In this document: positions 3,645 through 22,408 of the stretch, one piece after another | Layout: each line of letters opens with the position of its first letter | How positions within the stretch are numbered: position 1 is the first letter of the stretch | Origin: Candidatus Wukongarchaeum yapensis | GTDB taxonomy: Archaea > Asgardarchaeota > Wukongarchaeia > Wukongarchaeales > Wukongarchaeaceae | Assembly (NCBI GenBank): GCA_016840425.1 | Contig: JAEOSI010000011.1 | Location: 1-22,408 of the forward strand | Reading direction: 5' to 3' | Length of the DNA stretch: 22,408 nt | Position numbers and translations under genes: made by a program | The notes under the pieces: generated by a model | The model's database searches: none | The model's input: only the letters and a program-made list of their open reading frames with translations | What the model was told of the DNA's origin: nothing

Positions 3645-3866
3645 AACATTCCTAGTAGGCTCGTTATGTTTGAAAGAGCATTAACACTAACCTTTATGTA
3701 TTTAAAGGTACCCGAAGCAGTACCTATGATATTTGTAGCGAAATCCATCATAAGGTTTGATTATTCAAAGGAAAGATACCTCGCAGAATACTACTTAGCA
3801 GGAACTTTAGGTAGTATAACTTTTGCAGTAATTGTCGGCATTATCATAAATTACATCGTAGCTTAG
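3645..3866 (+). pseudogene. C-terminal fragment of a DUF3307-like membrane protein
   Basis: FERALTLTF...AKSIIRF.....YLAEYYLAGTLGS matches the conserved C-terminal motif I recall for DUF3307-type proteins (ER.L...AKS..RF...AEY.L.GT..S). The N-terminal part is absent, with an in-frame TGA at 3642. Confidence 0.55.
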
Positions 3867-3879
3867 GAGAGTATTTTTC

Positions 3880-4404
3880 GTGTTGGAGTTTAAAAGAGGG
3901 TTGTTTATTGGTAGGTTTCAACCGGTTCATTTTGGCCATATGCACGCTATAAAGTCAACTTTATCCTTTGTTGAAGAGTTAGTTATTATTATAGGAAGTG
4001 CTCAATTTAGTTATACCGTAGATAATCCGTTTACTGCGGGAGAGCGTGTGGAGATGATAAAATTAGCTGCTTTTGAGGAGGGGATCTCTTGTGACCGTTT
4101 GTTTGTTATTCCGATTAGTGATGTTCAAAGTCATAGCTTATGGGTTTCCCATGTTAAATCACGTTCTCCTTCTTTTGAGGTCGTATTTACTGGAAATTCT
4201 TTTGTAAAGCTTCTTTTTGAAGATGGAGGGTTTGAAGTAAGAAATATCACGTTATGGAAGCGGGAGAAATTTAATGCTACTGAAATTCGGAAAAAAATGA
4301 TAGGTGGAGGAAATTGGGAAGAGTTGGTGCCAAAATCTGTTGCAGATTTTATTAAAAAAATCGATGGCGTTAGAAGGGTTAAAATAAGGGTTTCCAATGA
4401 CTAG
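3880..4404 (+). CDS. nadM: Nicotinamide-nucleotide adenylyltransferase (archaeal NMNAT)
   Basis: FIGRFQPVHFGH (HxGH), IGSAQ.S....NPFTAGER and a SATEIR-like NATEIRKKM motif. GTG start after AGGAG. Confidence 0.95.
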   Translation: MLEFKRGLFIGRFQPVHFGHMHAIKSTLSFVEELVIIIGSAQFSYTVDNPFTAGERVEMIKLAAFEEGISCDRLFVIPISDVQSHSLWVSHVKSRSPSFEVVFTGNSFVKLLFEDGGFEVRNITLWKREKFNATEIRKKMIGGGNWEELVPKSVADFIKKIDGVRRVKIRVSND

Positions 4405-5979: not shown

Positions 5980-6087
5980 TGGGCGAGCCCGGATTCGAAC
6001 CGGGGACCTCCACTTTACGCGTTTTCAAACTTAGTATGCAAGATGTCTCGTAAGGGTGGCATCATAACCGAACTAGACTACTCGCCC
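5980..6087 (-). tRNA. tRNA-Val(UAC) with a 33-nt intron at non-canonical position 39/40 (intron 6014-6046)
   Basis: Acceptor stem GGGCGAG/CTCGCCC, anticodon TAC at 6052-6050, T-loop TTCGAAT. Removing 6014-6046 restores the CCACC/GGTGG stem. The BHB central helix is TACG/CGTA. Confidence 0.9.
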
Positions 6088-7923: not shown

Positions 7924-8290
7924 ATGGCTGGGTATCCAGAGTAGCCCCTCTTCTGTTCCGCGGGGCCTTTCGCCTGAAGGCGGCAGACATCCCGCTCAGC
8001 AACATTCAACTAAGCGCCTTACCCGGCCCTCATAGACATTCATTGGAGCCCTATTTAGGCTTGCTCCGCGGCGTTAGGCCGTTTCAACGCTCCTTCACGC
8101 TTCCTCAACGGTAAGAGACTAATAAGCGCCATATCATCGTCATTTGGCGTGAAGACGTCTCGTTTCTGCTCCTAGAGCCGGGTTCTCACCCGGTGACTTA
8201 CGCCACGCCACTTGCCTAGGGAGGAGGGAGCTTCCTCAAGACATGCAGATCGATACATGTCCCGAAAGTCACCCTTGGACTCCCAGCCAT
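7924..8290 (-). ncRNA. rnpB: RNase P RNA (archaeal, type A-like)
   Basis: Terminal P1 ATGGCTGGG/CCCAGCCAT; CR-I GAGGAAGCTCCCTC pairs with CR-V ACAGAAGAGGGGCTAC; GCAGAAAC and GAAACGGC conserved blocks; GGTAA in the L15 region; TATA-like TTAAAATATA about 21-30 nt upstream. Confidence 0.92.
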
Positions 8291-9136: not shown

Positions 9137-9182
9137 AGGCCTCATAAACTTCGTGAAAACTTTAGCGGCTAAGATACTTAAG

Positions 9183-9190
<8 letters not shown>
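9137..9190 (-). other. 3' arm of the pre-23S processing stem with BHB
   Basis: Pairs with 12244-12298. Central helix CGCT (9167-9164), AAA bulge (9163-9161). Confidence 0.88.
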
Positions 9191-12243
<3,053 letters not shown>

Positions 12244-12252
<9 letters not shown>

Positions 12253-12298
12253 CTATAATAGTATCTCAGCTATCGCCGTTTTTTGGTTTATGAGGCCT
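12244..12298 (-). other. 5' arm of the pre-23S processing stem with BHB
   Basis: Complementary to 9137-9190. Central helix GGCG (12277-12274), ATA bulge (12273-12271). Confidence 0.88.
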
Positions 12299-12712: not shown

Positions 12713-14173
12713 TTGAAAGTTATTTTTAAAGGGGAAATGTTAAACATGTTTTTTAGAAGTATATTCCGGGGTAAGGATGTTTTTAGTGTGAAGAGTGGGA
12801 AAACGTCGGGAGATTGTGTTGTCTTTTTTGGGGAGAGGGTTAATTTATTTTTAGGGGTTTTGGAGATTAGTTGTAACAAGGAGAAGGGCATTTGGTCTTC
12901 TTTTAGAGAGGAGGGGCATATTAATCTGGAGGGAGAATTGTTTCCTTTGTTGAGTTCTTTTGTTAAAGACTGTTCTTTAGAGTTTAGGAGGGGAAAAGGT
13001 GTTCGAATTTTTATTTATGAACGTAAAAATTTGATAGGGGATTTAGAAGGAGATATAAGGGTTTTTGAAGAGACCTTTAAAAAAATAAAGGAAAAGATCG
13101 GGGAGAATTGGGGGGTTATGTTTGATGTTAAGGTTGTTGATCCTGAAGGTTTTTTGAGGGAGATCCAAGAAAGTATTCCTGAAGAGATAACAAGTTGGGA
13201 GAAGGATTCTGATAAAAGTTTATACATAAAAGCAAAAGATGGGGGATATTACATAGGATGTAGTTATTTTAATGAAAAGAGTTTTAGTGAGTCTTTTGCG
13301 GAAGAAATAGAAAGGATAATGGCTTTTAAGGGATTGGATCTAAGTTTTATATTGAATGTGGAGGGGAAACATTATTCTTCCTATTTATTTTTAAGATCTA
13401 GGAACTCTTTGAAATTTTTAATAAAAGATTTATGGGGGAAAAAAAGTAACGGTTTAGAGGTTATAAGTGGTTTTTTGGGAGTGAAGGGACTGCTTGAGAA
13501 TTTTGGCAGGATTATTTTAAGGCGGGGAATACCAAAGGGCAGAAAAAGATTTCTTAGCGAATTTTCGGGTTTAGAAGAACTTTTTAATAGTTGTATAATT
13601 AGGATCAATGATGAAAAAAATGATTTTTCAAGTATAAGAAATAAAGTGGAGGGAGAATGGTGTTTTTATTGTACCTATCCTGAAGGGGCTTGTAATAACG
13701 TTAAAAAATATGTTGAAGAAAAACTAGAAAAAATGGACGAAAAAAGGATAATGGAATCAATTGAAATGCTTAAAAAAGGAGAGGTTGAAAGATTTTGTAC
13801 ATTTATGAATATAAAGTTGCGAAGTTTACCTTGCTTTTTTAGGGCGATTATGAAATTTTTAAAAGAAAAAAAAACGCTGATAGATCAGGCGCAGGAATTG
13901 GAAAAAATTTTATCTCTCAATGTCGAGGAAGAGTGTAACTATTGCACCGTTCCCGAAAAAGAATGTAAATATGTGAAAAATTGGGTATATACGATCATTA
14001 AAAAAGCAAAAACTTCACTAATCGAAAAGATTAGGAGGGGATTTGAAAAAGACGAAGAAATAGGGTTAAAACTATTATTTAAAAATCTTAAGATACCCCA
14101 TGAATACTTGCCTTGCGCAAGAAGAACAATAAGATATATTCTCACACAAAATAAAAAGAAGTCACAAAATTAG
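12713..14173 (+). CDS. Hypothetical protein (486 aa) with two C-terminal CxxC-x6-C...LPC repeats (putative metal or Fe-S binding)
   Basis: C317/C320/C327/C374 and C408/C411/C418/C468. The N-terminal part is not recognised and the start is uncertain (TTG 12713, ATG 12737 or ATG 12746). Confidence 0.75.
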   Translation: MKVIFKGEMLNMFFRSIFRGKDVFSVKSGKTSGDCVVFFGERVNLFLGVLEISCNKEKGIWSSFREEGHINLEGELFPLLSSFVKDCSLEFRRGKGVRIFIYERKNLIGDLEGDIRVFEETFKKIKEKIGENWGVMFDVKVVDPEGFLREIQESIPEEITSWEKDSDKSLYIKAKDGGYYIGCSYFNEKSFSESFAEEIERIMAFKGLDLSFILNVEGKHYSSYLFLRSRNSLKFLIKDLWGKKSNGLEVISGFLGVKGLLENFGRIILRRGIPKGRKRFLSEFSGLEELFNSCIIRINDEKNDFSSIRNKVEGEWCFYCTYPEGACNNVKKYVEEKLEKMDEKRIMESIEMLKKGEVERFCTFMNIKLRSLPCFFRAIMKFLKEKKTLIDQAQELEKILSLNVEEECNYCTVPEKECKYVKNWVYTIIKKAKTSLIEKIRRGFEKDEEIGLKLLFKNLKIPHEYLPCARRTIRYILTQNKKKSQN

Positions 14174-14307: not shown

Positions 14308-14407
14308 GGCCTGGATGGGGTAGTGGTATCCTGAGGGACTGTGGATCCCTTGACGCGGGATGGAACATAGGAAATGCTCCACGCGATTTCAATTCCCGCT
14401 CCGGGCC
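14308..14407 (+). tRNA. tRNA-His(GUG) with encoded G-1 and a 28-nt intron at 53/54 (14360-14387)
   Basis: 8-bp acceptor stem GGCCTGGA/TCCGGGCC, anticodon GTG at 14341-14343, stem AGGGA/TCCCT. Strict BHB: TTGA/TCAA, CGCG/CGCG, TGGA/TCCA. Confidence 0.93.
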
Positions 14408-14708: not shown

Positions 14709-14877
14709 AACTTTATTCATTTCTAAGCATAAATCATGAAGAAATAACTAAATAATTTTGAACACTTATTATTCATCCTCGATTTACAGTCAAAGACGTA
14801 TTCCGATACAAGATAGGGGGGGATATAAATGTTTCAAAGTGATTTTATTATGAAAAAATATTGAAAGGGAAAAGAAA

Positions 14878-15051
14878 ATGTTTAAAAGAAAAATTAGAGG
14901 AAAAAGGGGTTCACCTCTTTTAGAGGAAGGTATACTATTAGGACTTTCACTTTTCATGTTTTTAATAATTGCTTCAATGGTTTTGGGTATTCTAGATTGG
15001 AGTTCAAACAATTTTGATGAAGCACTAGACGCCATTAGTGACCTTGACTAA
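14878..15051 (+). CDS. 57-aa Flp-like prepilin (class III signal peptide; not in ORF track)
   Basis: Hand translation gives MFKRKIRGKRG/SPLLEEGILLGLSLFMFLIIASMVLGILDWSSNNFDEALDAISDLD*. It has a basic leader, a Gly cleavage site, Glu at +5 and a 22-aa hydrophobic helix. SD-like GAAAGGGA lies upstream. Confidence 0.8.
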   Translation: MFKRKIRGKRGSPLLEEGILLGLSLFMFLIIASMVLGILDWSSNNFDEALDAISDLD

Positions 15052-15072
15052 TCGGATTAAGAGTTTAAAAAA

Positions 15073-15207
15073 TGGTGCGGGGGATGGGATTCGAACCCAC
15101 GCAGGTTTATGCGGTTTTATTACAACTCTACACCACAGGATTCGATCGCTAAACGATGTTTAACGTGCCTCAGTCCTGCTCCTTTGGCCTGGCTCGGACA
15201 CCCCCGC
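15073..15207 (-). tRNA. tRNA-Leu(GAG) with two introns: 26 nt in the anticodon loop (15142-15167 if 37/38) and 21 nt in the variable arm (15107-15127); CCA encoded
   Basis: Acceptor stem GCGGGGG/TCCCCCGC region, anticodon GAG at 15171-15169, stem CAGGA/TCCTG. Splicing restores the variable arm GGT-GTAG-ACC. T-loop TTCGAAT. Confidence 0.88.
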
Positions 15208-15645
15208 TGCTGGAAAACGCCCCCAGAAGCCTCTACGAGCCATTTTAGAGGGGTTGATCCTTTGAGGGTGCTTTCTTCAAATCGTAGACCTTTGAAGGTA
15301 GAAAATCCTTCATCGTTTATAAAGTCTACGACAGCGCATAGCAGCTGTTTGCGCCTACTGCTACGATTCTCACGTAGTTCTTCAGCGTTTTTGAGAGCCA
15401 AACATATTAGTAAATCTTCTTCTTTTTGAGTATTCCATAAAAGCCAAACTTTTTATCCCTAAGCTACAAAGAGTTAATAGAATTGTATTTTGGATAACGA
15501 TTTACACCATGACCTAAAAAACTTCCAAAAGCAGAATCCTCAAAAAGAACATTTACTAAAGCAATCTAGGGGCTTTATTTTATAGAAGAGAAAGTTTTTT
15601 GAAGAAGTTTCTTTTTTAGATAGTTTTACACTGGAGGTAAAAATT

Positions 15646-16362
15646 GTGGTTAAAATTAAGTTAATAGAAGAGGGCTCCTTAGAAAGATGCACGCTCATAA
15701 CAGGTTTTCACGGGTTGGGACAAGTTGGCTATATTGCTGTGCGGCATATCGTAAAAGTTCTTTCGCCTAAAAGAATAGGGGTTATACTTACGAAAAATTT
15801 ACCTCCGTTTATAACCGTTGAAAATGGGAAAATTATTCTTCCCTTTGAGGTTTATAAAAAGGATAAGTTCATCATAGTTTTACCACACATACAACCTTAC
15901 AGAAGAAACATGACCTCTTTTATGAAAGGTTTAGTTAAATGGGCAATTATGAGTAAAATAGAGCAAGCAGTTCTAATTGGAGGGGTTGATAACCAGTTAA
16001 AAAGATCGTTAGAAGAGGTCTGTTGCGTTTTAACCGAGACATTTAAGAACAATAAAGGAGACCTGAAGCTACCTTATTTGAATGATTGGCTTTTTGTAGC
16101 AGGTCCTCTAGCTTTAATGCTTGGATTTTCAGAGATTTACAAATTCCCAGCCGCAGCCATTTTAGCCTTTGCAGAAAGATACAGACCAGATCCAAAGGCG
16201 GCTGCCGCAGTTATAGAAACAATAAATAGGCTTTTTGGGCTTAAAGTAAATACTACAGAGCTAGTTGAGGAAGCTGAAAAAATAGAACAGGAAATAGAAA
16301 CGTCTTTAAAACAGTATAAGATACAAGAATTAGAAGAAGGGTCACGAGGGATGTATATTTAA
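15646..16362 (+). CDS. PAC2-family proteasome assembly chaperone
   Basis: LITGFHGLGQVGYIA, LIGG, AGPLALML and PDPKAAA motifs and a C-terminal MYI (HbYX-like) tail. GTG start after GGAGGT. Confidence 0.88.
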   Translation: MVKIKLIEEGSLERCTLITGFHGLGQVGYIAVRHIVKVLSPKRIGVILTKNLPPFITVENGKIILPFEVYKKDKFIIVLPHIQPYRRNMTSFMKGLVKWAIMSKIEQAVLIGGVDNQLKRSLEEVCCVLTETFKNNKGDLKLPYLNDWLFVAGPLALMLGFSEIYKFPAAAILAFAERYRPDPKAAAAVIETINRLFGLKVNTTELVEEAEKIEQEIETSLKQYKIQELEEGSRGMYI

Positions 16363-16793
16363 GTTTCTTCTTTTTTAGACATTTCAACAAAACGCTCAAA
16401 AGCCTGACGAATTCTATCCGCAGTTGGTCCTGTCCCTTCAACGCCTTGAGAAGTAACTTTCACCCGGCCAAGTACCGTTATTAATCCTGGATCCTCATAA
16501 AATTTAACTTCGCCTAAAGGAAACATTTTTTCAAGTTCTTGAGCTAAACCTTTGAGGTCAAAAGGTTTTTCGCTTAAAACTATTTCAGCTACTATTTTAC
16601 CACTAAGGACTACCCGTGGAAGCACATTCCCCTCATTATCTTTAGCATCGTCTAAACAAACGCTTAGGGAATCAGGGTGATAACCTTTTAAAAATCCTAA
16701 AAATGATTTGCCATTAACTGTTATAACTTTAACATATTTACCGAGCAAAAAAGCAAGTGCTTTATAAAACTCTCTCGCACGAACATTGGCCAT
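16359..16793 (-). CDS. Sm-like protein with C-terminal domain (SmAP3 type)
   Basis: N-terminal Sm fold (LLGKYVKVITVNGKSFLGFLKGY...SVCLDDA...VVLSGKIVAEI) plus a C-terminal extension (LAQELEKMFP..VKFYED.G.ITV...VKVT..GVEGTGP.ADRI). Confidence 0.8.
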   Translation of the reverse strand: MANVRAREFYKALAFLLGKYVKVITVNGKSFLGFLKGYHPDSLSVCLDDAKDNEGNVLPRVVLSGKIVAEIVLSEKPFDLKGLAQELEKMFPLGEVKFYEDPGLITVLGRVKVTSQGVEGTGPTADRIRQAFERFVEMSKKEET

Positions 16794-17013
16794 AGAAAAA
16801 CCCTACCATCCTTTAAAGGATTTTAATCATACACTTTCTATTCTTAACTTTTACTATTTAAAATAGTGTATATTTTCCTTAAAATTTTCTCAAAAACCTT
16901 AAAGACCATTCAAAAAAACTTTAAAAAGATTTTGAAAAAAAACGCTTGAAAAAGCTATATTGATGAAAAAACTCTGAAATCCGATATAAATCCAATTTTT
17001 TAATCTTGAAGTT

Positions 17014-17037
17014 GAAGAAGAAGAAGAAGAAGAAGAA
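17014..17037. repeat. (GAA)8 microsatellite in the divergent intergenic region
   Basis: Eight perfect GAA units followed by TAG. In that frame a TAA at 16987 is reached with no start codon in between. Confidence 0.9.
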
Positions 17038-17189
17038 TAGTTACGTTTATCTCCCTCATTGTAGGGTTATTGTTTCCTACATACGCGAAATATGTTCTAA
17101 TTTATTGAAAAAGAGAAGGATATAAAGAGGTTTATTATTTTTAAAAATTACTTTATTGGTTTTTTGCTTTTTGTTTAAATTGATGATTT

Positions 17190-18203
17190 ATGAGATCAAT
17201 ATACTTCAATCAAAATGTTTGTCCTGAGTGTTCAGGATTTCTAGTTACAACAGAGTATAATATTGTTTGTGTGGCGTGCGGTCTCGAAGTTTCTAGGATT
17301 ATAAGCGATCCTACATATTGTATAGAATCAGAAAACAGACAAGGAAACTATTATACATTTCCAGGAGCAAGAGCATATTTAGCCGATGGTTTAGGCACAG
17401 ATATAGACCGTTATAAAACAAATAGATTTAGAGATTTTCGAGGTCGAATTCTTTCAGAAAAAAAACAAAATAAGTTTAAAAGGTTAAGGATAATACATCA
17501 AAGAGTCGGAAGATTTGGTGAAAGAGAGAGAAATTTTCACGCTTTATGCTTGATAAACAGGATTTCTGCCCTTTTAAATCTTCCAAAAAACGTAAGAAAC
17601 AGGGCAGGATACTACTATAAAAAAATTTCAAAAATTATAAGAAAAAATGATAAAGAGAAAAAAAGAAGAAGAAATTCAGTAAAGATCGCGGCATTTTGTA
17701 TATTAGCAGCGGTTAAAGAAGACCCTAAAATAATACCTATTCGTTTAGTAGAGATCCTTAGATGTTTCAAAAAAGCAGGCTACAACATTAAGGGATCAGA
17801 TTTAACAGAATTGAGACTTTATCCAGAAATTACAAAAATTATAAAGATCAAAGCAAGAAAGAGCGAAGATTATATCGACAGGATCATCGATTCAACATTA
17901 GCTTCAAAAAAGGTGCAAAATCAGGTTGAAAAGAAAAAAATAGATACTTTGGAATATAAACAAGCACTTTTGAGCGTTTGTAAAAAGATTTTAGAAAAAA
18001 CACCAGCTCAAAAAAGGGGAGGAAGGGACCCCTATATAATGGCCGCAGCGGCTGTTTATGCAGCAGATAAATACATTTCTAAAATCCATCAAGCAGGAGC
18101 CATATTAACCCAAAGGCTTCTTGCTGAGATAACAGATGTTGCAGAATATAGTATAAGAGAACACTATCTAAAGGTGTTAAAAGCACATGTATACAAAAAA
18201 TGA
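17190..18203 (+). CDS. Divergent transcription factor B (TFB/TFIIB) paralogue
   Basis: Zn ribbon CPEC..CVAC. First cyclin fold (LINRISALLNLPKNVRNRAGYYYKKI). Second cyclin fold and HTH (GRDPYIMAAAAVY...LTQRLLAEITDVAEYSIREHY). Confidence 0.85.
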   Translation: MRSIYFNQNVCPECSGFLVTTEYNIVCVACGLEVSRIISDPTYCIESENRQGNYYTFPGARAYLADGLGTDIDRYKTNRFRDFRGRILSEKKQNKFKRLRIIHQRVGRFGERERNFHALCLINRISALLNLPKNVRNRAGYYYKKISKIIRKNDKEKKRRRNSVKIAAFCILAAVKEDPKIIPIRLVEILRCFKKAGYNIKGSDLTELRLYPEITKIIKIKARKSEDYIDRIIDSTLASKKVQNQVEKKKIDTLEYKQALLSVCKKILEKTPAQKRGGRDPYIMAAAAVYAADKYISKIHQAGAILTQRLLAEITDVAEYSIREHYLKVLKAHVYKK

Positions 18204-19797
18204 AACGGTAAAAATTGAAGAGAAAAGTTGTGAAGAGTTAATCATAGACGATTATAGAGTTGGAATTTTTTTCATAAAGATCTTTGATACTTATCCAGAG
18301 GCAACATATCAAGCAACGCCCTTAATATGTGAGGAAACTGCTAAAATAATGAAAAAAATCGCTAAAACAGTAGTTACAACCACTAAGCTACAGGATAGAA
18401 TATACAAATTAAATGAACTTCTCGAAATAATAAAAAAAGAAGCAACTATCTTATGGAAAAAATTAACTTATAAAAGACCATATATTTTTAGAGATGAGGA
18501 TTTAGAAGAAATATTGCTTCTAACCGCCTATCAAGTTATTGGTATGGCAGAGTTAACACCCCTACTTATGGACAGGTGGGTAAACGAGATATACCTGGAT
18601 AATCCTAAAACGCCGATATATATAGATCATTTAAAATGGGGGAGGTGCAAAACCAAGACATATTTAACAAGGGGGGAGATAGAGAAAATAGTGACAAGGA
18701 TAAGGATAGAGAACGATTTAGTGCTAAAATATACAAATCCTTCAATAAAAGGAGAGCTTGTCACAAAGAATTTTCATGCCCGTGTAACAATAGACGCCCC
18801 ACCTCTTGCCATTGATGGATTCCATATAGATATAAGAAAGTTAAGAAAAAAACCTTATACACTTCCAGAGTTAATAGCAAATAAAACATGTACATTAGAA
18901 GCTGCGGCATACATATATTACTGCCTTATTAATCGATGTAACATAACGGTTATAGGGGAACCGGGAGCTGGAAAAACGACAATGATAAACGCTTTAGATC
19001 TTTTAACCCCGCATATCTGGAGAAAAATAGTCATAGAAGACGCCATTGAAAGTATACCACAAACAGAGTATGGATTTCATCAACTACGTTTAAAATGTGG
19101 AAAACAAGATCTAGAGGAAAAAAATGGAAATGAGATCTATAATGAAAAGAGTAGAGAGATAGCAAAGCTTTTGCATCGCAGCCCTGACTGGGTATATCTT
19201 GGAGAAATATTATATCCAGAAGATGCAAGAGCTATGTTTCACGCTTTATCAGCAGGATTAAAAGGTCTTCAAACATGCCACGGAGAAACACCAGAAAACG
19301 TGATAATAAGATGGGTAATACACCATAAAATACCAGCCGTAGCCCTCCAACCTTTAGACTTAATTCTTCACATGAAAAAAATCGTTGAAAAAAGAGAAAT
19401 AAAAAGAAAACTTGTCCAAATATGCGAAATAAAAGACGTTATAGACATTAATAGGCAGGAGAATGGAGAAAAATTAGAGGAAAACGAAAAAACAGGGAGA
19501 AATCAAGAAAGAGGAGAAAAAATCATAGAACTACCAGATCAAAAAGTTGTTCTAGTAGACACTTTTCAATATTCTCCTAAAACAAACCAAGCAGAAAGAG
19601 TAATAAAAAATTTGTTCATGACACCCACTTTAGAAAAGATAAAAAGGTACAGTTATGTAAAAGAAGAAAGGTTTAAAGAAACGTTACAAAAGCTTGAAAA
19701 AACACTGAAAAACCTTACACTAACAAAAACATTTAACATAAAACAAGTGAAAAACAGCCTTCTAAACACAATCGGAGAAGGAAAAGAAATATCTTGA
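18187..19797 (+). CDS. Type II/IV secretion (TadA/CpaF/VirB11-like) ATPase
   Basis: Walker A GEPGAGKTT, Asp box IEDAIE, Walker B RSPDWVYLGEI, His-box-like QTCHG, and IDIRK and NEIYLD motifs. Confidence 0.92.
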   Translation: MYTKNETVKIEEKSCEELIIDDYRVGIFFIKIFDTYPEATYQATPLICEETAKIMKKIAKTVVTTTKLQDRIYKLNELLEIIKKEATILWKKLTYKRPYIFRDEDLEEILLLTAYQVIGMAELTPLLMDRWVNEIYLDNPKTPIYIDHLKWGRCKTKTYLTRGEIEKIVTRIRIENDLVLKYTNPSIKGELVTKNFHARVTIDAPPLAIDGFHIDIRKLRKKPYTLPELIANKTCTLEAAAYIYYCLINRCNITVIGEPGAGKTTMINALDLLTPHIWRKIVIEDAIESIPQTEYGFHQLRLKCGKQDLEEKNGNEIYNEKSREIAKLLHRSPDWVYLGEILYPEDARAMFHALSAGLKGLQTCHGETPENVIIRWVIHHKIPAVALQPLDLILHMKKIVEKREIKRKLVQICEIKDVIDINRQENGEKLEENEKTGRNQERGEKIIELPDQKVVLVDTFQYSPKTNQAERVIKNLFMTPTLEKIKRYSYVKEERFKETLQKLEKTLKNLTLTKTFNIKQVKNSLLNTIGEGKEIS

Positions 19798-19849
19798 TTG
19801 AAAGAAGGAGGGAAAAACCTCGACAACAAAAAATATAAACGGATTTTTT

Positions 19850-20695
19850 GTGAAAATTGCTAAATTATCATGCCGGAAAAATTCTTTAAGAGAACTTTTC
19901 AGCCATATAGTAAAAAAAAGATCAAAAACCAAGCTTTTAAAGAAAATATACGAACACTACGGAATAACACAGGAAGAAGTTTTAGGCGGTAGTATAATTA
20001 TTAGCCTCCTAGTAACAGCCACGATTTTTACAATAACAACCCTTACAAATATTTTTGATTTTTCACTAGGTATAAAAGTAATTATAAGCGTTTTAATCGG
20101 AAGCATCGTCTATTATTACTTCAATGAAAAGTTTATTAGAGACTATATAAAAAAATCACACCAGATAGAGATATACGCTGATCTAATTTTAGAAGAATTT
20201 ACTGCCATATTAACCGCTACAAATTCGATAACAGAAGCCATAACATACATAGCACAAGAAAACTATTCAGAAATTTCAAAAGCATTTAGAGAAATATTAA
20301 AACAGATAAATTACGGAAACCCACCCGAACTACTACTTTTAGAATATATCGAAAAAGGACAACCTTCCCAAACCCTAAGAGAAAACCTAACCACCATAAT
20401 ACAACTATACCAAACTAATAAAGAAGAAAAAACAGAAGAAACACTAAACCAATTATCAAAATACTATTCATGGAACGTCCAAAATAAATACATAGAAGAG
20501 ACCCAAAATCTAATGGCAAAAACCACTGCAACAATAACGTTCCTCACATTTTTCCCCATAACATACGCGATAATATCTATTTTAGGGGGGCATACTTCAG
20601 ATTTTTTTATCATAGCTCTCCCTTTTTTACAATTAACAATAGCAATGCTTGCCTATAAAAAAATCTTAACCAGCCAAATAGAACTAATAGAATAA
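19850..20695 (+). CDS. TadB/T2SS-F-like inner-membrane platform protein (N-terminal half)
   Basis: Two N-terminal TMs, a cytoplasmic T2SSF-like domain (NSITEAITYIA...ISKAFREILKQINYGNP) and two C-terminal TMs. Follows the ATPase gene. Confidence 0.78.
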   Translation: MKIAKLSCRKNSLRELFSHIVKKRSKTKLLKKIYEHYGITQEEVLGGSIIISLLVTATIFTITTLTNIFDFSLGIKVIISVLIGSIVYYYFNEKFIRDYIKKSHQIEIYADLILEEFTAILTATNSITEAITYIAQENYSEISKAFREILKQINYGNPPELLLLEYIEKGQPSQTLRENLTTIIQLYQTNKEEKTEETLNQLSKYYSWNVQNKYIEETQNLMAKTTATITFLTFFPITYAIISILGGHTSDFFIIALPFLQLTIAMLAYKKILTSQIELIE

Positions 20696-20783
20696 ACATT
20701 TAGACCGTTTAAAGGGGGTAAAACCATTTTATAAGCTCTTTAATAAAAAAGAAAAAACGTCGATAAACATATCGCAATATCTT

Positions 20784-21446
20784 ATGTTTTTAGGAACAGA
20801 GCTTGTAAAAGGAAAAAGCGTAGAACATGCACTATATGCAGCAATAAAAAAACACGGAGGAAAAAATAAGGAAATCCTCGAGAAAATAGCACAATATATC
20901 CAGTTAGGGATGCCTTTTGAAAGAATCATGGAAAAAACAATAAAAACAAAAGAAAAAGAAGAAGACGAAATAAACGGTCTAGACGAGAACACAAAAAAAG
21001 TATTAGAAATAACACAAAAAATAATAAAAAACAACCCAAAAAAAGCAGGAGAAACACTCATCCGCCTGTCGACAAAAATTGACGAAAATAAAAAACACAG
21101 AAAACGCCGAGAAACCATGATAAAAGCAGAAAAAACAAAAGCAACAATAACCATCTTCATAATCTTCGCAATCATGGGGCTCTTAGCAGGAATAACACCC
21201 CTCCTAACACTTGCCACAACCATAACAAAAACAAACCCACAAAACTACAGAACGATTGTAACCCAAACAGTAATCCAACAAAACCACATAACCACCCTAA
21301 CCCTCCTCATAACAACAATAATAACAGCACACTACACAGGAAAAATCACCATGACAGAAAAAACATGGAAAAACATACTCATCGGAACACTACTATTCCT
21401 AATAATATACCAAATAACAACCATAACAATAGCAAAAACACCCTAA
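20784..21446 (+). CDS. TadC/T2SS-F-like platform protein (the frame is open from 20691; possibly the C-terminal half of a fused gene)
   Basis: GKSVEHAL...ILEKIAQYIQLGMPFE T2SSF-like segment followed by three hydrophobic helices. Confidence 0.72.
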   Translation: MFLGTELVKGKSVEHALYAAIKKHGGKNKEILEKIAQYIQLGMPFERIMEKTIKTKEKEEDEINGLDENTKKVLEITQKIIKNNPKKAGETLIRLSTKIDENKKHRKRRETMIKAEKTKATITIFIIFAIMGLLAGITPLLTLATTITKTNPQNYRTIVTQTVIQQNHITTLTLLITTIITAHYTGKITMTEKTWKNILIGTLLFLIIYQITTITIAKTP

Positions 21447-21474: not shown

Positions 21475-21579
21475 CGCCGGGGGTGGGATTCGAACCCACG
21501 CGACGCAAAGCGTCAGCAGGTAACCCGAAACCAAATCTATTACCTCAGAATAGGCATAAAATCAAGCACTCGAGCCTAC
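21475..21579 (-). tRNA. 5'-truncated tRNA-Ser(CGA) (positions 27-73 only) with a 47-nt intron at 37/38 (21522-21568)
   Basis: GTAGG-CTCGAG-[intron]-A-CCTGC, long variable arm GACGC/GCGTC, T-arm GTGGG-TTCGAAT-CCCAC, 3' acceptor strand CCCCGGC-G73. BHB helix CTCG/CGGG. No GCCGGGG or D-arm upstream. Confidence 0.8.
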
Positions 21580-21659
21580 AAACGAAGATATCACGCAAAA
21601 AAGCCGAAAAAACGCGTAGCGGATCTTTGCTTATACGTCCCTAAATAGTTGAGGAGATA

Positions 21660-22408
21660 CTACTCGATCCAAGACCTGTACTCCTTCGCCTGATCGTGTA
21701 ACCCCATCTTCTCACAAAGCTTCGCCCCCTCCTCGTAAAGCTCATTCGCCCTCTTCTGATCACCTAACTCCTCATAACACAACCCCGTGTTAATGAAGCA
21801 TTCGGATATACCACTTTTGTCCCCCAACTCCTCGAAGATCTTCAGAGCTCGCTGGAAGTACTCCAAAGCATCACCATAATCACCCTGATCATAAAAGATG
21901 GCGCCCATATTATTGAGGCAGAGGGACACACCACTCTTGTCCCCCAACTCCCCGAAGATCTTCAGAGCTCGCTGGAAGTGCTCTAAAGCCCTTTCATAAT
22001 CACCCTGATCATAAAAGATGAGGCCCATATTATTGAGGCAGAGGGATATGCCACTCTTGTCCTCCAACTCCTCAGCCATCTTCATAACTCTCTGAAAGTA
22101 CTCTAAAGCCCTTTCATAATCACCCTGATCATAAAAGATGAGGCCCATATTATTGAGGCAGAGGAATATGCCACCCTTGTCCCCCAACTCCCCGAAGATC
22201 TTCAGAGCTCGCTGGTAGTACTCCAAAGCATCCCCATAATCACCTTGAGCAGAGAAGGTGGCACTCATGCCGATGAGGGAGTTGGATATCCCGCCCTTGT
22301 CCCTCAACTCCTCGAAGATCTTCAGAGCTCGCTGGAAGTACTCCAAAGCATCACCATAATCACCCTGATCATAAAAGATGGCGCCCATATTATTGAGGCA
22401 GAGGGACA
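21660..22408 (-). CDS. Tetratricopeptide-repeat protein (40-aa repeats), 5'-incomplete
   Basis: Repeating unit NNMGLIFYDQGDYERALEYFQRALKIFEELGDKSGISLCL. The frame stays open to the window edge. Confidence 0.9.
   Translation of the reverse strand, partial: SLCLNNMGAIFYDQGDYGDALEYFQRALKIFEELRDKGGISNSLIGMSATFSAQGDYGDALEYYQRALKIFGELGDKGGIFLCLNNMGLIFYDQGDYERALEYFQRVMKMAEELEDKSGISLCLNNMGLIFYDQGDYERALEHFQRALKIFGELGDKSGVSLCLNNMGAIFYDQGDYGDALEYFQRALKIFEELGDKSGISECFINTGLCYEELGDQKRANELYEEGAKLCEKMGLHDQAKEYRSWIE
21781..22408. repeat. 120-bp tandem repeat array encoding the TPR units
   Basis: The units align at a 120-bp period. 21825-21928 is identical to 22305-22408, and 21981-22044 is identical to 22101-22164. 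Confidence 0.92.

Follow-up and report, generated by a model that had tools for sequence, protein, structure and literature searches.

A TFB-linked operon with a conserved mini-prepilin suggests a minimal type IV filament machine in Asgard archaea

Introduction

Does a 57-residue open reading frame (ORF) in the genome of the Asgard archaeon Candidatus Wukongarchaeum yapensis encode the subunit of a filament machine, and does it belong with the downstream operon for a transcription factor B (TFB) paralogue, an assembly ATPase and two platform proteins? The question was raised by a first-pass annotation of 22,408 nucleotides of contig JAEOSI010000011.1 (assembly GCA_016840425.1), hereafter the window, in which a minimal filament system had been proposed from the DNA letters. 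The metagenome-assembled genome (MAG) from which the window derives comprises 2.16 Mb in 277 contigs and is 92% complete.

The module described here consists of a divergent TFB paralogue, a T2SSE ATPase, a TadB-like and a TadC-like platform protein and a mini-prepilin of 57-85 aa, with an SmAP3-type Lsm gene in divergent orientation. With a probability of about 0.6, we read it as a Tad/Epd-like type IV filament machine of minimal make-up, whose operon includes a TFB paralogue and whose pilin has a specialised promoter. By sequence comparison, the module appears ancient; it is present in most Asgard genomes sampled and patchy in TACK archaea.

The nearest published system is clade 4D of Pyrobaculum and Thermoproteus, in which an ATPase and a membrane protein were described alongside a TFIIB homologue, with Rpb8 in the vicinity and without a pilin (Makarova, Koonin and Albers 2016, PMC4858521). 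In a later survey, ordered type IV filament loci were rare in Asgard archaea, and 4D was treated as a pilin-less remnant (PLoS Genet 2026, PMC13705601).

Results

The small reading frame encodes a conserved candidate prepilin

The Flp/Epd-like mini-prepilin (14878-15051, forward strand) was recognised from its ORF, a pilin hidden Markov model (HMM) and an alignment. Its sequence begins MFKRKIRGKRG/SPLLEEGILLGL, the slash marking the predicted cut (KRG/SPLLEEG), which places Glu at +5 and leaves a mature chain of 46 aa. A class III signal is apparent in KRG/SPLLEEGILLGLSLFMFLIIASMVLGIL, with a basic leader, a small residue at position -1 of the predicted cleavage site and a hydrophobic helix. 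Alignment of 29 diverse homologues revealed Glu+5 to be the sole invariant column and gave [KR][GA]/[SGT][PQ][LI][LIV]E[EQ] as the predicted cut-site pattern. AlphaFold2, supplied with the family alignment, predicted one continuous helix over residues 13-56 at a pLDDT of 88. The gene is present as a single copy in its own genome.

A single-sequence protein search with the 57-aa ORF returned only four near-identical proteins, a consequence of the word-index limit, and homologues beyond these were recovered by a profile search and an exhaustive HMM search. The HMM, built from four copies of the small ORF, matched in 54 of 86 loci compared (Asgard and TACK archaea, 80 of them fetched with an ATPase profile), with E-values down to 7e-35; the ORF is therefore not a chance frame. 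Exhaustive searching yielded 164 clusters (50% identity) at E<=1e-3, and the clusters listed were all small proteins of ~44-150 aa, except for one of 1,655 aa with a 12-residue match. Outer members of the family bear G/GSxxEYGL, the Flp motif, and reach a sub-threshold match to PF04964 (Flp_Fap; 8e-6, 26 bits versus a cut-off of 32.2), a model that matched neither the window pilin nor the 29 family members. Pfam and NCBIfam scans of these 29 found no model covering the family and only three marginal Pilin_N matches.

Public records of the homologues mostly read 'hypothetical protein'; several were named 'Flp pilus assembly pilin Flp' by JGI, and one NCBI record reads 'Flp family type IVb pilin'. 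As identical or near-identical proteins are public under the former label, the ORF is not strictly unannotated, as had been stated. The remaining description, that of a class III prepilin with Glu+5 and an Flp-sized mature chain of 46 aa, was confirmed at 14878-15051 and extended to a family, and conservation of the small ORF, set beforehand as a test, was found to be strong. The comparison suggests that the window protein probably behaves as an Flp/Epd-type pilin, as a distant homologue standing outside the curated Flp family.

In one metatranscriptomic run, an RNA-library contig of 178 nt, identical to positions 14853-15030, spans the pilin ORF, and further contigs lie on the TFB, ATPase and TadC genes. 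The run covers parts of the window only, as contigs, with none in the part encoding the PAC2 and Lsm proteins described below. Such contigs cannot prove transcription, the uncovered part does not translate into an expression level, and the contig end at 14853 is not readable as a start site; they offer weak support for expression of the module.

The operon encodes the core of a probable type IV filament machine

The TFB-ATPase-TadB/TadC operon was recovered as first annotated, the ORFs being assigned by domain matches and the second platform gene by homology. The leading gene (17190-18203, forward strand) encodes a divergent TFB/TFIIB paralogue of 337 aa with matches to PF00382 (5e-6) and, over the whole profile, to NF001658 (7e-17). 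The NF001658 score of 61 bits versus a cut-off of 384 marks it as a divergent paralogue and not a canonical TFB. It contains a Zn ribbon with the nearly invariant residues C11/C14/C27/C30 and two cyclin folds, and its AlphaFold2 model matches TFIIB in preinitiation complexes (7nvu_M, 1e-8) and the TFB of P. woesei (1ais_B, TMt 0.66-0.75). It is the third TFB of the genome, scoring 58 bits versus 481 and 346 for the other two.

The start of the ATPase gene (18187-19797, forward strand; 536 aa) overlaps the TFB stop by 17 nt. The protein belongs to the T2SSE/VirB11 superfamily of assembly ATPases (PF00437, 1.9e-12, 47 bits versus a cut-off of 24.9). Among 17 homologues, G257, G262, K263, T264, E284-D285, E340 and H365 are invariant, consistent with Walker A, Asp-box, Walker B and His-box motifs. 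The nearest solved structures are A. fulgidus GspE (afGspE, 2OAP; 2e-22), CpaF (4e-14) and FlaI (2.5e-13), and by the curated models the protein is not a FlaI, TadA, BasE, TrbB or VirB11. Its nearest named relative stems from a 'Candidatus Hodarchaeota' MAG (91% identity), and homologues of 40-47% identity occur throughout the Asgard lineages and in Bathyarchaeia.

Two platform genes follow on the forward strand, each encoding one T2SSF domain: a TadB-like one (19850-20695; PF00482, 5e-7, 30.0 bits versus a cut-off of 25.2) and a TadC-like one (20784-21446; PF00482, 1.8e-4, 21.9 bits, below the cut-off). With the family HMM, the TadC-like ORF is recognised at 1e-87 as a clear homologue of the second platform gene in related loci. 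Platform homologues follow the ATPase in 80 loci (146 ORFs), and fused forms are confined to one distinct sub-clade. That TadB and TadC might be one gene split by a +1 shift was considered and rejected, as two genes, often with a 4-nt overlap, are the rule of the family in these ORFs.

The prepilin peptidase, which had been expected elsewhere, is encoded on contig C118, where the sole A24 prepilin peptidase of the genome was found at 10168-10524 (PF01478, 29.3 bits versus a cut-off of 26.5) in an ORF of 266 aa with a GPADSK motif. The genome thus holds the type IV filament superfamily's four core parts, namely a T2SSE ATPase, a T2SSF platform, a subunit with a class III signal and an A24 peptidase, in support of the minimal filament system first proposed; filament formation and function are predicted from these parts. 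Three T2SSE ATPases are encoded in the genome, one of which, on contig C49, adjoins ordinary Pilin_N-type pilins.

Synteny ties the pilin to the operon across Asgard and TACK archaea

Pilin homologues stand beside the ATPase family in the 54 loci, mostly directly after TadC and on the same strand. The order TFB, ATPase, TadB, TadC, pilin on one strand, preceded by Lsm on the other, is found in Hermod, Odin, Baldr, Bathyarchaeia, Methanomethylicia, Culexmicrobium, Nitrososphaerota-labelled and Thermoprotei loci. Adjacent to the ATPase in one Lokiarchaeia genome and one Freyarchaeum genome is an ORF of 68-71 aa with a KG/SPL[IV]EEGILIGL core, and in a Heimdall genome a 64-aa pilin copy precedes TFB-ATPase-TadB-TadC. 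Because this synteny is conserved across Asgard and TACK archaea, the link between pilin and operon, originally drawn from proximity and the weakest step of the first-pass annotation, no longer depends on proximity alone.

Clustering of the ORFs in the 86 loci gave a conserved neighbourhood consisting of the ATPase (86 loci), platform (80), TFB (64), pilin (54), SmAP3 (24) and PAC2 (20). Distribution was surveyed in 301 Asgard genomes, each at least 80% complete, of which 90 are of high quality and which represent 76 genera. The TFB paralogue was detected at E<=1e-40 in 252 of them (81 of the 90 high-quality genomes), and the pilin HMM matched in 262 (83 of the high-quality genomes and 71 of the genera), in most as a single copy. 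Among 401 Thermoproteota genomes, 71 had a pilin match.

Variation in gene order was observed in a few loci. The pilin is shifted upstream of PAC2 and SmAP3 only in the lineage of loci L005, L011 and the window; L011 has ~1.4 kb between TadB and TadC, and L006 yielded only an ORF of 60 aa (3738-3920) that matches the TadB C-terminus.

A G-rich candidate pilin promoter is shared across lineages

About 50 nt upstream of the pilin ATG (14816-14830, forward strand), the sequence reads as a putative promoter, with GGGGGGG in the position of the B-recognition element (BRE), directly followed by the TATA box ATATAAAT. This is the only GGGGG[GA][GA][AT]TATAAA site in the 2.16-Mb genome and represents a local variant of TGTGGRGYTTAAATA, which was found before pilin genes of other lineages. 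There, TGTGGRGYTTAAATA lies ~35-45 nt upstream of most pilin start codons, even where the pilin directly follows TadC, and farther upstream in Loki, Freya and Jord loci. In 1.22 Mb of loci, the core pattern was matched 29 times, 26 of the matches lying before pilin genes and two in the divergent pilin/ATPase region of one Freyarchaeum genome. A G-rich 7-mer precedes 27 of 630 TTAAATA sites, most of which have 0-2 G. For the Heimdall group of L010 and the L04x loci, the motif finder settled on a tRNA T-arm, and a GTGGTGTTTTTAATA site nearer to the pilin was seen by reading.

A candidate operon promoter, AAGGATATAAAG, was read ~63 nt upstream of the TFB ATG (17116-17127, forward strand) and has GGATATAAA in common with the pilin promoter. 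A (GAA)n run of about nine units at 17014-17040, in the same Lsm/TFB intergenic region, was skipped as a repeat in read mapping.

The BRE is the position of TFB contact. From a G-rich element at this position, a co-encoded paralogue of TFB fold and two ordinary TFBs elsewhere in the genome, we infer that the paralogue may serve the pilin promoter as a sigma-like initiation factor of its own. An analogy is offered by Sulfolobus TFB3, which activates ups pili and ced genes after UV; in both cases a type IV pilus system would have a TFB paralogue reserved for its expression. TFB3, a truncated protein that acts with TFB1, is encoded outside the pilus operon, whereas the window paralogue is full length, has its gene inside the operon and is matched by a conserved promoter element.

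The module resembles a full-size subsystem 4D

In a quick maximum-likelihood tree with many long branches, which broadly groups by lineage, the window ATPase fell into a family clade of 43 rows (support 92), apart from both the canonical pilus ATPases and the 4D ATPases with their long branches. Nesting within a canonical pilus clade with other pilins, an outcome considered beforehand, was not seen in this tree. The TFB-linked Pyrobaculum-type ATPases form a long-branch clade of their own (support 99).

The Pyrobaculum 4D locus of our set (L104) comprises Rpo8-like and SmAP3 genes on the forward strand, divergent from genes for a TFB-like protein (157 aa), an ATPase (342 aa) and a membrane protein (178 aa); the SmAP3 of this genome matches Pyrobaculum aerophilum SmAP3 (1M5Q) at 1.1e-69 with few substitutions. 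As in 4D, the window has genes for a VirB11-family ATPase and a membrane protein directly preceded by one for a TFIIB/TFB homologue, a pairing found in the 64 TFB-bearing loci, and an SmAP3 gene divergent from the TFB gene (in Pyrobaculum together with Rpo8), so that SmAP3 on one strand and TFB-ATPase on the other are arranged alike in both. The parts differ in size, the window TFB and ATPase being full size (337 versus 157 aa and 536 versus 342 aa), and there are two T2SSF platform genes in the window versus the single 178-aa membrane protein. Unlike 4D as published, which is pilin-less, the window has a cognate mini-pilin with its own promoter, and a pilin is found in 54 loci; unlike the Pyrobaculum locus, it has no Rpo8 gene. 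Given the shared arrangement, the module looks like a full-size form of what Pyrobaculum and Thermoproteus have as the reduced, 'pilin-less' subsystem 4D, and the SmAP3-TFB-ATPase synteny supports a kinship of the two.

A mini-pilin-like ORF (MKKRG/SVLVEEVLL...) was detected in the same Pyrobaculum genome, 600 kb from the 4D locus. Pyrobaculum-type mini-pilin-like ORFs in L097 (8329-8523, reverse strand) and L098 (9013-9207, reverse strand) are isolated and far from the 4D locus, and one of them has a weak PF16982 Flp1_like match (E 0.002). A paper on Pyrobaculum sRNA (PMC3388794) was set aside as not relevant to the short 4D paralogue, since it concerns tfb1 and tfb2.

The loci L076, L078, L079, L081, L087, L089 and L090 (ATPase at ~7.2-9.5 kb) carry a long-branch ATPase sub-clade with no TFB or mini-pilin nearby and with a platform gene that is fused and encodes ~500 aa; a pilin-like ORF of ~140 aa (MTNLIEKSLLIGFGIF...) lies just after the ATPase in L089 and L090 at least. 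This group looks like a derived sister system.

In the literature searched, no paper combined Asgard, Flp and pilin, and none described the module; it had either gone unnoticed there or been described as lacking a pilin. The earlier wording 'possibly undescribed' holds in this respect, and is qualified by the automatic naming of some homologues as Flp pilin and by 4D as the nearest published system.

Neighbouring genes and other contents of the window

Between pilin and operon, a gene for a protein like PAC2-family proteasome assembly chaperones (15646-16362, forward strand; PF09754, 3e-36) is followed by that for the SmAP3-type Lsm protein (16359-16793, reverse strand; Sm domain and Lsm_C, PF14894, 3e-15), which is divergent from the TFB operon. 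The Lsm protein matches P. aerophilum SmAP3 (1M5Q) over its full length (4e-17), and the divergent Lsm/TFB pair is kept in 24 loci and in the Pyrobaculum 4D locus. PAC2 homologues lie near the module in 20 loci, for example in Heimdall, Nezha, Methanomethylicia and Thermoprotei; PAC2 is a recurrent neighbour of the module by position.

Neither the ORF list nor domain scans revealed archaellum accessory, Ups/Ced or VirB4 genes in the window, in agreement with the first reading, and no integrase or other mobile-element gene was seen there. The Heimdall genome of L010 encodes a large DUF87/TrwB-type (HerA/VirB4-like) ATPase at 16474-17491 (reverse strand), ~7 kb from the module, of which there is none in the window.

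Rfam identified archaeal large-subunit (LSU) rRNA, RNase P RNA and tRNAs. RNase P RNA (7930-8284, reverse strand) and a complete LSU rRNA (9181-12253, reverse strand) account for the GC-rich block at 9-12 kb. Three tRNA genes (5980-6087, reverse strand; 14309-14407, forward strand; 15076-15207, reverse strand) are 99-132 nt long and therefore presumably intron-bearing; ARAGORN reported no tRNAs in the window, none of these three included. Directly 3' of TadC, a tRNA-like sequence at 21475-21660 was noted, where ORF translations contain GIRTHA/GFEPTR, typical of a tRNA T-arm, and where DNA and RNA contig depth spikes, as it does at the tRNA at 15076-15207. An orphan ORF of 486 aa (12713-14173, forward strand) with repeated CxYCTxPExxC motifs has no Pfam or NCBIfam match and is kept in the close relative L005 (489 aa).

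Discussion

The module shares with bacterial Tad/Flp systems a platform split into two single-domain proteins, a mature pilin of ~45-50 aa forming a single helix without a globular domain, a predicted cut after Gly with Glu+5 and then G-L-L/I, and, in outer family members, a G/xxxxEY motif approaching PF04964. Unlike bacterial Flp, the window pilin has no PF04964 match and carries Glu instead of Tyr at +6. Unlike TadA/CpaF, the ATPase scores 69.8 bits versus a cut-off of 373 with the TadA model TIGR03819, and its CpaF match is weaker than that to afGspE. The window module also differs from bacterial Tad in having no secretin, TadZ or pseudopilin genes, and in having a TFB paralogue and a specialised archaeal promoter.

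The archaeal Epd system (system 1, Methanococcus maripaludis EpdE) has been proposed as the origin of bacterial Tad (Denise et al. 2019, as cited in PMC13705601), and often has two platform genes, like the window module (PMC13705601). An archaeal host and a tiny major pilin without a globular domain are further points of likeness. Unlike Epd, the window pilin shows no match to the class III signal of PF04021 and starts with Ser, not Gln, at +1; no EppA-type peptidase or Epd accessory pilins were seen, with no search aimed at EppA having been made; and the module is found in Asgard and TACK lineages and is linked to TFB. It also differs from the archaellum: the ATPase reaches 89 bits versus the FlaI equivalog cut-off of 550 (NF058587), and FlaH, FlaF/G and archaellins are absent from the window and from the conserved neighbourhood.

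As a minimal Tad/Epd-like filament machine, the module could work as follows. The prepilin would insert into the membrane and be cut after the Gly of [KR]G/SPL.EE by the single A24 aspartyl peptidase of the genome, acting in trans. The ATPase and platform would then pull the single-helix subunits of 46 aa out of the membrane and assemble them into a thin filament of Tad/Epd type, with Glu+5 in its usual role of subunit registration. The TFB paralogue, as a sigma-like factor, would read the G-rich element in place of an ordinary BRE before the pilin TATA box, and possibly such an element before the operon too.

The gene identities, conservation, synteny, promoter motif and predicted folds are direct results of the analysis. 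Cleavage, filament formation, recognition of the promoter by TFB and a role in adhesion, cell contact or DNA uptake are deduced from them, and that none of these has been observed counts against a filament machine. Several results add to this weight. The window pilin has no Pfam or NCBIfam match, and the ATPase falls well short of the cut-offs of all curated equivalog models, FlaI and TadA included. In the tree, the family, 4D and canonical pilus ATPases form a polytomy, by which a sister relation to 4D is neither supported nor rejected. In the window, 3 kb and two further genes separate the pilin from the operon downstream, and minor pilins or other pilus accessories are not conserved in the neighbourhood of the 86 loci. 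Presence in most genomes, single copy number and strong conservation are unusual for adhesion pilins and would fit a more housekeeping role. Finally, a non-pilus, transcription-related or remnant role has been favoured for 4D (PMC4858521; PMC13705601).

Several of these points are also what speaks for a machine derived from a type IV filament that builds no external pilus and serves as a short pseudopilus or piston, as a membrane element in secretion, DNA passage or envelope work, or in a transcription-related capacity as proposed for 4D. Housekeeping-like distribution, the Rpo8 and SmAP3 neighbours in Pyrobaculum with SmAP3 also in the window, the lack of conserved accessory pilins or adhesins and the published view of 4D (PMC4858521, PMC13705601) would all suit such a machine. 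We nevertheless consider this, the main rival reading, unlikely, if worth serious attention. The core set is intact, including the catalytic residues of the ATPase, the invariant Glu+5 and a predicted cleavable class III motif. Flp/Tad and Epd major pilins form long filaments, and the window subunit resembles them in size and shape. The published argument for 4D, moreover, leaned on a missing pilin, and no longer holds now that a pilin has been found.

It is considerably more doubtful that the TFB paralogue associates physically with the ATPase as its partner or client, for instance by being held at the membrane and released upon filament activity, thereby coupling surface sensing to transcription. 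TFB and ATPase genes are adjacent in most lineages, overlapping by 17 nt in the window, and the pairing is retained from Asgard archaea to Pyrobaculum, even where both proteins are truncated. This adjacency fits a plain regulator equally well, however, and TFB lies on the opposite strand or downstream in Loki, Freya, Borr, Sif and some Heimdall loci; the conserved pilin promoter already provides TFB with a conventional job. Prediction of a TFB-ATPase complex gave a score of 0.00, which counts neither for nor against contact.

That the small ORF and the operon are mere neighbours, or the region a mobile island bounded by tRNA genes and a tRNA fragment, is highly improbable and largely refuted by synteny: PAC2 and Lsm genes do separate pilin from operon, and tRNA genes do lie at 14309-14407 and 15076-15207, but pilin, PAC2 and Lsm also recur in distant lineages, as conserved parts of the module or next to it, the genome has only one pilin copy, most genomes sampled carry the module, the ATPase tree broadly follows lineage, and no integrase or mobile-element gene was seen in the window.

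Returning to the filament machine, a wider interpretation may be advanced tentatively. The module might be a core-like filament machine of Asgard archaea and of their common ancestor with TACK archaea, with the co-encoded TFB reading the G-rich pilin promoter as a sigma equivalent for one organelle, perhaps with RNA-level control through SmAP3 or feedback from filament to transcription, and 4D might be its degenerate remnant.

Unlike the published view of rare ordered loci, an ordered module, complete except for the peptidase acting in trans, is found in ~85% of the sampled Asgard genomes, and the cognate pilin of the TFIIB-linked system appears to have been overlooked. For Flp-type pilins, the module may point to a root in archaea that lies outside the Epd system of methanogens. 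It also offers a testable case of promoter selection by a TFB paralogue, in which factor, 15-nt element and target gene are all defined. If the wider interpretation is true, archaea would possess, in the TFB paralogue, a counterpart to sigma factors reserved for a single surface organelle.

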